DNA from: Alphaproteobacteria bacterium
GTDB lineage: Bacteria > Pseudomonadota > Alphaproteobacteria > JAGOMX01
Direction: 5' to 3'
Assembly (NCBI GenBank): GCA_017993335.1
Contig: JAGOMX010000004.1
Location: forward strand, 1,185 to 65,184
DNA: 64,000 bases
Position numbers and translations under genes: made by a program. Numbering within the stretch: position 1 is the first letter of the stretch; every line of letters begins with the position of its first letter. Shown here one piece after another: positions 62,211 to 63,902 of this stretch. The notes under the pieces were generated by a model. That model was not told the DNA's origin. It searched no databases and saw only the letters and a program-made list of their open reading frames with translations.

Positions 62211-63902
62211 TTATTTCGGAGTGTTGGCAATTTTGCAGGCATCGTTCCAGGCTTGTATGGGGCTGGCTCCGCCATGACCCATTTTTTCTGCATCAAATGT
62301 TGCGTATCCAAGTCTGCGTTGCGAGGAATCGTTTGGTTTGAAAGCGGATTTGAGGATTATGTCTTTTATTTCAATCATGGTGAGTTGGGGAAAATATTTT
62401 CCTAAAACGACAGCCAGAGATGCAACCCTTGGTGATGCAAAGGATGTTCCTTCTGCACCATCCCTCTTTTTGTATGGGATTCGATTCTCATCTAGGATTT
62501 TTGCCTCCATAACATAACCAAGGCAAAATATGGTGTGGTCTTTAGCAACTCCAGCTAAATTGGTGTATTCAGCTGGTTTATTCCCTTTGGCAAATCCATA
62601 GGCGCCAACAATCAGAAGACGTTTTGACAGTTCGGGATATTTTTCGAGGTTATCACGGATGGAAATATTGCCTTCATCCGTGACGGTCTTATTTTCACCG
62701 AGTACATTTTTCTCATTTCCCGCGGCGATAACCAGTAACATATCGTGATCATGGAGTATTTGTGTGAGTTTAGCAACAAGGGCATCGGCGTCTTCCGCTT
62801 TGGCCTCAAAGGATAACGACATGTTTAAGACTCGTGGCAGGGGGAGCTGCTTTTCTTTGCAATACATAATGGATTTTTGAATATTTTCGAGTAGATCTTG
62901 ATTTAAGGAATGATGCATCTCTTTACTTCGAAAGTGTGTACTCGTCTTTAATAAGGCGTTTTGTGTGTTTAACAAAATTATTGTATCACCGTTAGATTTT
63001 ACAAGAGTTGTAAGATTTTTTATTGTAGTGAGTAGCCTTTCAAATTTTCTTATGGTTTTTTTGTTGTGAGAAAAAGCTTCAATGGGCAAAACTTTTGCAC
63101 CATAAGCTAAGGTTTTTTGAGTTGGGTCCATAGAGGCCGCGCATGCGGAAACTAAACTGCCGTGAGCCATGTCATCTTCAAGATATTTTTCATCGAAAGA
63201 TTCATCCCAGTCTTCCATGTTGACCCCTGCATCGGGTTCAAAATTTGAATCTATAACGATCATGGTTGTATCAAAACCATTTATGTTATTTTTTGAAAAA
63301 ACACTATGGGCGAGCAACCAGGGGTGATGAAATTCATAGAATTCGAATCTGCCATTTATTTCTTTTACCGCTTGGTTTTCTGTTTTTTGAATCAATTCAA
63401 CTGGAGTGCCCTCTGTTGCGTGGATCTGAACGGGTTGGCGGTATAAGGCTTCCTTTAATTGATTATCGGGCAGAATTGCCAACAAAGCCATGATCTTTGT
63501 TTCGTTAAATTGTGGCAGAATCATTTTAATGTCATTGACTGCATTTTGTATATGTTCTGCATTAAAGGCTGGCCTTATTCTTTGTATGTTTTGGCAAATA
63601 AACCAATATTCTAAATCTGGCCGCCCCCATTGTTTAAAGGTTTCCCATAGATTTTGGCGCTCTTGTGCGTCGGGAATGAATAAAAGACTTTTTTCCAAAG
63701 ATGGGAATTGTTCCAGCGTTAATGGCTTGGGTGCTGGATAATAAGGGTAATATCCGCCGCCATAATATGCTTGTTGTGGATAAGCGTAGGCATAAGTGGG
63801 TGAATATGATGGATAATAGGATGCCGTACCTATGCTTGGTATTAATCCACAGATCAAGATTATGTAAAATAAACGCACCAAAACAATCTCCATACAAAAC
63901 AC
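62211..63902 (-). CDS. divergent secreted S8-family (subtilisin-like) serine peptidase with Tyr/Pro/Gly-rich low-complexity N-terminal segment
   Basis: All four subtilase motifs are present in order: D (TMIVIDSNF), H (DDMAHGSLVSACAAS), oxyanion N (LVIAAGNE) and S (EGTSFASPRVASLAVVL). Signal peptide followed by SYYPSYSPTYAYAYPQQAYYGGGYYPYYPAP. Confidence 0.7.
   Translation of the reverse strand: MFCMEIVLVRLFYIILICGLIPSIGTASYYPSYSPTYAYAYPQQAYYGGGYYPYYPAPKPLTLEQFPSLEKSLLFIPDAQERQNLWETFKQWGRPDLEYWFICQNIQRIRPAFNAEHIQNAVNDIKMILPQFNETKIMALLAILPDNQLKEALYRQPVQIHATEGTPVELIQKTENQAVKEINGRFEFYEFHHPWLLAHSVFSKNNINGFDTTMIVIDSNFEPDAGVNMEDWDESFDEKYLEDDMAHGSLVSACAASMDPTQKTLAYGAKVLPIEAFSHNKKTIRKFERLLTTIKNLTTLVKSNGDTIILLNTQNALLKTSTHFRSKEMHHSLNQDLLENIQKSIMYCKEKQLPLPRVLNMSLSFEAKAEDADALVAKLTQILHDHDMLLVIAAGNEKNVLGENKTVTDEGNISIRDNLEKYPELSKRLLIVGAYGFAKGNKPAEYTNLAGVAKDHTIFCLGYVMEAKILDENRIPYKKRDGAEGTSFASPRVASLAVVLGKYFPQLTMIEIKDIILKSAFKPNDSSQRRLGYATFDAEKMGHGGASPIQAWNDACKIANTPK

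Follow-up and report, generated by a model that had tools for sequence, protein, structure and literature searches.

What is a run of tyrosines and prolines doing at the front of a bacterial protease? The question is raised by one gene near the end of a 64,000-nucleotide stretch of an alphaproteobacterial contig (JAGOMX010000004.1; the whole stretch is called the window below). The open reading frame (ORF; 62211..63902 on the minus strand, where all parts of this gene given below lie, with its stop codon at 62211-62213) encodes an S8 (subtilase) family serine peptidase of 563 amino acids counted from a GTG. Its product is a 100% match to NCBI MBP6985186.1, a 556-aa 'S8 family serine peptidase' from an Alphaproteobacteria metagenome-assembled genome (MAG), and since NCBI already names it an S8 peptidase, the protease call as such adds nothing new. 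An earlier note on this DNA, made from the letters alone, had drawn attention to the Tyr-rich N-terminus of the protein and likened it to eukaryotic low-complexity domains. We find that this Tyr/Pro tract and the helical domain behind it are, as judged by sequence comparison, the most constrained part of the protease gene.

The N-terminal module and its conservation

The tract, SYYPSYSPTYAYAYPQQAYYGGGYYPYYPAP, occupies residues 28-58 (63729..63821) and holds 12 Tyr, 6 Pro and no charged residue in 31 positions. It sits directly after a hydrophobic, signal-like segment, which is where the earlier note had seen a segment rich in YSPT and YY. Tyr accounts for 12/31 of the tract vs 2.6% of the remaining protein (binomial probability 8e-12 to 6e-9), and a six-frame translation of the 64-kb window contains no second tract of this kind. 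The AlphaFold2 (AF2) model predicts it to be disordered, with a predicted local distance difference test score (pLDDT) below 50. Behind the tract, AF2 places an all-helical N-terminal domain (residues 59-155; 63438..63728) of six helices at pLDDT 65-85, and this is joined to the catalytic domain by a linker that is again predicted to be disordered (residues 156-186; 63345..63437; pLDDT <50).

A word-indexed search of 5.8 billion clusters returned four other relatives of the protein, which we call P0002 (85% identity), P0003 (40%), P0004 (36%) and P0005 (35%). The helical N-domain is restricted to the window protein, P0002 and P0003. Measured against P0002, the ratio of non-synonymous to synonymous substitution rates (dN/dS) is 0.065 in the tract, where there are 1 non-synonymous and 4 synonymous changes, and 0.14 in residues 59-205, which hold the helical N-domain and the linker, vs 0.40 in the S8 core and 0.80 in the fast-evolving signal peptide. 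Comparing the counts of non-synonymous and synonymous changes in the N-terminal module with those in the rest of the gene gives p = 0.004 by Fisher's test. The more distant P0003 keeps the Tyr/Pro composition and 8 alignable Tyr positions; its tract is about 62 aa long vs 31 aa in the window protein, and its linker also differs in length. Because dN/dS is low in the tract and N-domain, and because composition and Tyr positions are kept in P0003, we conclude that the tail is not filler.

The module resembles no family that we could find. Residues 28-205 match no Pfam family even at E <= 1. Inhibitor_I9 propeptides (PF05922) have an alpha/beta fold; this region has no Pfam match to that family and is modelled as all-helical. 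The isolated N-domain found no fold match in the PDB (best E > 5), a weak negative that does not establish a novel fold, because the model is only moderately confident (mean pLDDT 62, built from 3 sequences). When 1.84 billion representatives were searched exhaustively with a profile, its first 130 positions were matched by the window protein and P0003 only. A metagenome scan for the module with alignment A3 confirmed 0/321 pattern matches, and this negative is also weak, as the scan missed the Joint Genome Institute (JGI) contig that carries P0003.

In front of the tract, residues 1-27 (63822..63902) form a predicted Sec signal peptide, with the hydrophobic core LFYIILICGLI and the c-region PSIGTA/S (a slash marks the predicted cleavage site). 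Residues about 5-25 are the sole hydrophobic segment of the protease, and this segment ends in the small-x-small site G-T-A/S, which corresponds to SMA/S and CTA/S in P0002 and P0003. We rejected a lipoprotein reading: the sequence ILIC/G does not fit a lipobox, and the position of the Cys is not kept in P0003.

A divergent subtilase with a variable insertion at its cleft

Sequence profiles and the structural model together make it firm that the protein is a genuine, very divergent S8 subtilase with a complete predicted active site. The subtilisin-fold catalytic domain spans residues 187-563 (62214..63344), as delimited by PF00082, hhalign, Foldseek and a pLDDT mostly of 85-98. Pfam Peptidase_S8 (PF00082), the profile against which the earlier note had proposed a check, scores 73.6 bits vs a cut-off of 21.8, with residues 209-533 covering profile positions 12-287 of 288, and membership of S8 is thereby firm. 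An hhalign comparison with subtilisin BPN' has a probability of 98.4% and puts all four active-site residues in register: Asp218 (codon 63249..63251) with D32, His247 (63162..63164) with H64, the oxyanion-hole Asn396 (62715..62717) with N155 and Ser487 (62442..62444) with S221. The D, H, N and S motifs are therefore present and ordered as had been claimed, and these four residues are invariant across the five closest homologs. The AF2 model, computed from a 20-sequence alignment, is matched by Foldseek at probability 1.0 and a template modelling (TM) score of about 0.7 (target-normalised) to PagA, subtilisin BPN', MycP1/3 and Plasmodium SUB1.

Pairwise similarity is very low, and 'highly divergent' is on that account a fair description. 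The best phmmer hit in the PDB has E = 0.04, and identity in structural alignments is 14-19%. The further claim that the protein bears little resemblance to canonical subtilisins thus holds for pairwise comparison but not at the profile level, given its PF00082 score. The broader picture of a secreted, highly divergent subtilase is sustained by a signal-like N-terminus, an intact catalytic tetrad and an insertion between the H and N motifs, all of which we found.

How does the protein compare with characterized subtilases? It shares with subtilisin BPN' and the classical S8A enzymes the alpha/beta fold, the Asp-His-Ser triad and oxyanion Asn in the same order and register, and the motifs VIDS, HGS, AAGNE and GTSFASP. 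It differs in its 14-19% identity, in lacking an I9 propeptide, in bearing the N-terminal Tyr/Pro tail with a putatively novel helical domain, and in extra helices inserted at the edge of the S4/substrate cleft. The catalytic domain ends where subtilisin ends, with no C-terminal domain or anchor. The mycosins (TIGR03921) are the best NCBIfam match, and MycP1 and MycP3 also rank at the top of the structural matches; like the window protein, they lack a classical cleaved I9 prodomain and have additional loops in their S8 domain. However, the mycosin score is 42.6 bits vs a cut-off of 278.75, the window protein lacks the C-terminal transmembrane anchor, and no ESX genes of the type VII secretion system to which mycosins belong lie nearby, where groEL, an aldolase, an aminotransferase and similar genes are found instead; the host here is, moreover, a proteobacterium. 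We do not class it as a mycosin. The cyanobactin proteases PatA and PagA provide the top Foldseek match (4h6w, TM 0.73, target-normalised) and are likewise compact S8 enzymes without an I9 prodomain. They are only 14% identical to the window protein, which has a Sec signal, and no genes for cyanobactins or for precursors of ribosomally synthesized and post-translationally modified peptides (RiPPs) lie nearby; for want of such a cluster we rejected a PatA/PagA-like role in RiPP maturation. An anti-phage S8 peptidase of the IetS/IteS kind was also rejected, as matches were partial (18-22 bits over about 70 residues) and no ATPase (IetA) is adjacent.

The insertion occupies residues 279-334 (62901..63068) at the position of BPN' loop 97-103, where it appears both as a gap in the hhalign alignment and as two long AF2 helices (279-300 and 304-326). 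The distance from H247 to N396 is 149 residues vs 91 in BPN', so that the long insertion reported between these motifs is real and amounts to about 56 extra residues. In BPN', loop 97-103 forms one wall of the substrate cleft. Residues 279-350 evolve nearly neutrally relative to P0002 (dN/dS 0.89) and are 68% identical vs 87% overall, and across the subfamily the insertion ranges from near-absent to more than 100 residues of coiled-coil-like sequence. Such a variable element probably influences entry to the cleft or the choice of substrate.

Tracts of this type and the role of the module

Is the tail a eukaryotic signature? The earlier note had likened it to the heptads of the RNA polymerase II C-terminal domain (CTD) and to prion-like [G/S]Y[G/S] domains, and neither likeness survives. 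Like CTD and FUS-type domains, the tract is rich in Tyr, Pro, Ser and Gly, and it is predicted to be disordered. The CTD contains tens of heptads, whereas the window tract has one YSPT, with no YSPTSPS-type array and no heptad periodicity, and this YSPT is YPPT in P0002 and absent in P0003. A FUS-type or prion-like domain, taken here as more than 60-100 aa that are dense in [G/S]Y[G/S] or rich in Gln and Asn, is not present either: the tract has 31 residues, 2 Gln, 0 Asn and a single [G/S]Y[G/S], which is lost in P0002 and P0003. The motifs that suggested these domains are thus missing even from a homolog of 85% identity, and the domains themselves are nuclear or cytosolic, whereas the tract belongs to an exported protease. 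The view that the tail imitates the CTD or prion-like domains of eukaryotes is not supported, and the eukaryote-like reading appears superficial.

Bacteria supply closer company. Using the back-translated pattern YYPYYPAP against a metagenome collection, we obtained 98 matching stretches, of which about 85, read in frame, lie in genuinely Tyr-rich tracts, where as many as 26 of 68 residues are Tyr. Most of the ORFs bearing the pattern are 110-270 aa long, with obvious Sec signal peptides and further low-complexity sequence rich in Gly, His, Trp and Tyr; in some, the tract is joined to BA14K, TPR or DUF346/lectin-like repeats. The contigs that carry them have GC contents of 28-74%. The window tract has the exact octapeptide and the composition common to these roughly 85 tracts, a compositional likeness that does not imply homology. 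Like the window protein, the small Tyr/Pro exported proteins (BA14K and others) hold an uncharged YYPYYPAP-type tract between signal peptide and globular domain; unlike it, they are not proteases, and their tracts are often longer, with stretches rich in Gly, His and Trp. The number of these tracts, the variety of the domains attached to them and the spread of GC content indicate that uncharged Tyr/Pro tracts are a recurrent modular feature of bacteria rather than a eukaryotic signature. Among the 150 nearest S8 representatives, only 2 carry the tract (the window protein and P0003). The segment had been called very unusual for a bacterial protease, and it is indeed rare for a subtilase, but the tract type is common in bacterial exported proteins; judged from sequence, the rarity lies in the fusion of tract to subtilase and not in the tract itself.

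A large subgroup of the pattern-bearing ORFs (loci L004-L101, for example L010 at 641-663, L008, L017, L030 and L094) shares a C-terminal motif, 'YWYYC...GYYPYV..CP.GW..V.P', that belongs to no Pfam family. The ORFs with 'YWYYC...GYYPYV..CP.GW' come from soil and freshwater metagenomes and are apparently an uncharacterized exported class. A literature search on Tyr-rich tracts of bacterial subtilases, or on subtilases of Holosporales, found nothing relevant. Tyr-rich proteins of the Eimeria oocyst wall, described in a paper that surfaced in a subtilisin-related search (PMC10729351), and the tyrosine-rich sequences mentioned in a review of Chlamydia secreted proteins (PMC6717882) are analogies and not homologs.

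For the protein as a whole, the explanation that we find best, and to which we give about an even chance, is a Sec-exported S8A endopeptidase with an N-terminal localizing module. The protease would be exported by Sec and its signal peptide then cleaved, so that the mature enzyme would begin with the disordered, uncharged Tyr/Pro tail and the lineage-specific six-helix domain, a module that it would retain. Through multivalent aromatic and proline contacts of the tail, together with the helical domain, the module would bind an envelope, matrix or surface partner or associate with itself, while the catalytic domain is predicted to perform ordinary serine endoproteolysis. The module looks accessory because all other relatives lack it, among them P0008 (MBP6985067.1), a paralog, and because it has no I9 or other Pfam match. 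Several points weigh against this explanation. We infer cleavage of the signal peptide at the xxA/S site from sequence, and only three sequences carry the N-terminal module. The estimate of selection on the tract alone comes from 5 substitutions (p = 0.07), and the literature searched holds no demonstrated function for a tract of this type. In most respects a cleaved pro-region would account for the data just as well. Among the alternatives that the earlier note had listed, a propeptide or linker and adhesion remain live explanations for the tract.

If the module is such a pro-region, residues 28 to about 186 would be a non-canonical propeptide that aids folding or inhibits the enzyme and is autoprocessed at the linker, so that the tract would be absent from the active protease. 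S8 proteases mature from a precursor in which signal peptide, N-terminal region and catalytic domain follow one another, and this standard layout is the one seen here; the 31 disordered residues 156-186 between module and core are, by inference only, a candidate autoprocessing region, and strong purifying selection on the module is what would be expected of an intramolecular chaperone or inhibitor. Yet the module has no similarity to Inhibitor_I9 or any other family and no fold match, and the same catalytic domain occurs without it in P0008 and more than 15 other subfamily members, where it evidently folds unaided. A role as chaperone would also leave the conserved, low-complexity Tyr/Pro tail unexplained, and we consider a propeptide possible but doubtful. 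The hydrophobic segment might instead stay uncleaved, as a signal anchor from which an extended, polyproline-II-like Pro/Tyr spacer holds the protease at a distance from the inner membrane, in the manner of the membrane-anchored mycosins. Its length of about 20 residues, the Pro-rich, uncharged and disordered character of the tract, and the mycosins' standing as best NCBIfam match (far under the cut-off) and as top fold matches all agree with this. We nevertheless think a signal anchor improbable: a good small-x-small site kept in all three homologs lies just before the tract, the dN/dS of the signal segment is typical of cleaved signal peptides, and a mere spacer would need no such conservation of sequence.

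Two further explanations concern the tract itself. As mimicry of host motifs, PPxY, CTD-like YSPT or Tyr-phosphorylation motifs would dock the protease onto host proteins, making it an effector. PPxY-bearing bacterial effectors are known, PPxY occurs once in P0002 and twice in P0003, and the subfamily combines paralogs in one genome with a surface insertion that evolves fast. The window also encodes leucine-rich repeat (LRR) and Sel1-repeat proteins and many orphans, and the best named relatives of its GroEL are amoeba endosymbionts of Holosporales. Against this, the tract in the window protein has neither PPxY nor LPxY (SPTY stands instead), its single YSPT and [G/S]Y[G/S] are lost in the homologs, the only export signal recognized in the protein is of the Sec type and not one for effector secretion, and the window's GroEL is nearly as close to that of free-living Azospirillum. 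Tracts of this type are found widely in bacteria from soil and fresh water, whatever their GC content, so the tract can be accounted for without a host, and we regard mimicry as very unlikely. The tract could also be functionless filler left by replication slippage or compositional drift, as its low complexity, its disorder and its greater length in P0003 than in the window protein might suggest. We found no tandem repeat in it at the DNA level, however, and its Tyr positions are kept at 40% identity and its codons almost free of non-synonymous change (1 vs 4 synonymous) while the signal peptide and insertion drift freely. Nor would base composition drive such a sequence, since a window GC of about 40-47% implies no bias toward TAY and CCN codons. 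Filler is the explanation to which we give the least credence.

The subfamily, the gene and its neighbourhood

The exhaustive profile search yielded 1527 S8 matches, 74 of them at E <= 1e-10 and 18 at E <= 1e-30. By sequence, the window protein is a member of a tiny subtilase subfamily that is known so far from alphaproteobacterial MAGs. A word-indexed search with the 20-sequence alignment A2 recovered the 5 known sequences and 3 generic S8 proteins and missed the distant relatives, and a scan of genome representatives found a single relative, at locus L002 (27%). The nearer relatives, 430-620 aa in length, carry a signal peptide and a helical, K/E/L-rich insertion whose length varies, and they lack a Tyr-rich tract. 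P0008 is almost certainly a paralog within the window protein's own MAG, given the proximity of its accession to MBP6985186.1, and P0006 and P0016 (loci L002 and L103) both lie in assembly GCA_041738135.1. With at least two members in each of two alphaproteobacterial MAGs, the subfamily has within-genome paralogs.

Two features of these relatives deserve mention in their own right. Many of P0004, P0006 and P0008-P0012 end in a short basic amphipathic tail, such as ...GLFSKLKGLFVKKN, ...LGWFSSKKK and ...GFFKKLFGRFRK, which might bind membranes as a helix or act as a signal for secretion. This tail is not found in the window protein, P0002 or P0003, and the clade with the Tyr/Pro module seems to carry the module instead. 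In alignment A2, the position of D218 is not invariant: P0019, P0023, P0024 and P0027 appear to have Glu at the catalytic Asp position (VLESNF, VVENAP, VLESDF and VSELGK) and keep the His, Asn and Ser. These distant members could be Glu-His-Ser variants or pseudo-proteases.

The reading frame of the protease is open 5'-ward as far as the window edge, and the start codon is likely the ATG at 63893 (M4) or NCBI's TTG rather than the GTG. The 70 nt 5' of this ATG share about 96% identity with the corresponding part of contig L003, which carries P0002, and all 3 of the 3 differences in the leader would be non-synonymous were the stretch coding. A promoter-like pair of hexamers, TTGACA and TATAAAT, lies there at a spacing of about 19 nt, although the consensus scan did not call it. 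From these two observations we take the conserved stretch at 63903..63960 to be a leader or promoter that is probably non-coding, and we rejected the longer N-terminal extension called for P0002 on the same ground. On L003, the gene 5' of the protease (2-460) encodes a protein with a signal peptide and an ABM (antibiotic biosynthesis monooxygenase) domain (PF03992, 1.5e-9); the region that would match it falls past the end of the window.

Downstream and in the same direction lies ORF200 (61531..62133, minus strand), which encodes a 200-aa exported protein with a signal-like N-terminus, MNMMNKTLPLAALLLGFVASESALA/S, and a helical, Q/E/L-rich sequence. It matches nothing in Pfam, NCBIfam or PADLOC, and it was not found beside the homologs in the contexts examined. 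The gap between the two genes is 77 nt; with nothing resembling a terminator from the protease stop to the ORF200 start, and a terminator following ORF200, the two may be co-transcribed, although this is uncertain. That terminator (61456..61486) is a near-perfect 31-nt palindrome, AAAGCCCCGCTG...CAGCGGGGCTTT, between the convergent groEL and ORF200. With a stem of 12-14 pairs, 8 of them G-C, and a T run on the plus strand, it is an intrinsic terminator that works in both directions and ends groEL on one side and the protease/ORF200 unit on the other. No conserved operon partner emerged: in every homolog context examined the neighbours differ and are housekeeping genes, with the protease gene standing alone.

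The window is chromosomal, with dnaG, rpoD, dnaE, dnaB, alr, radA and groEL present. Amid the housekeeping genes lie an LRR-repeat protein (48609-49787, minus strand) and a Sel1-repeat protein of 737 aa (39364-41577, plus strand); eukaryote-like repeat proteins of this sort are common in host-associated bacteria. Five orphan ORFs of 261-716 aa, without a Pfam match at E <= 1e-5, are a notable density for an otherwise housekeeping chromosomal segment (45254-46543, plus; 46549-47850, minus; 32133-34283, plus; 30790-31575, minus; 19122-20078, minus). The best named relatives of GroEL are from Ca. Paracaedimonas acanthamoebae (82%), a Holosporales MAG (81%) and Ca. Nucleicultrix amoebiphila (79%). 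A Holosporales-like, host-associated lifestyle of the source bacterium is thus plausible from sequence but not established, because the Azospirillum protein is nearly as close (80%).

A tiny uncharacterized subfamily with within-genome paralogs and a rapidly evolving insertion at the cleft shows a pattern that is typical of surface or host-interaction factors. In the gene studied here it is the disordered Tyr/Pro tail and the helical domain, not the enzyme, that are most constrained. As a speculation that we think unlikely to hold in full, the tail and its fold-orphan domain may be a dedicated, strongly conserved module that docks a fast-evolving secreted protease on a specific partner, which could be a host protein, bound for instance by PY-type or Tyr-based motifs, if the bacterium is a Holosporales-like endosymbiont, or a general 'sticky tail' for retention in the envelope or matrix, common to hundreds of small Tyr/Pro exported proteins. 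Pursuing the tail has brought to light a large class of exported bacterial proteins that are rich in Tyr and Pro and carry no annotation. If the tail is not such a device, the protein would be no more than a divergent protease of ordinary kind that bears a decoration specific to its lineage; if it does serve as a general device for retention or adhesion, many orphan proteins would be explained.

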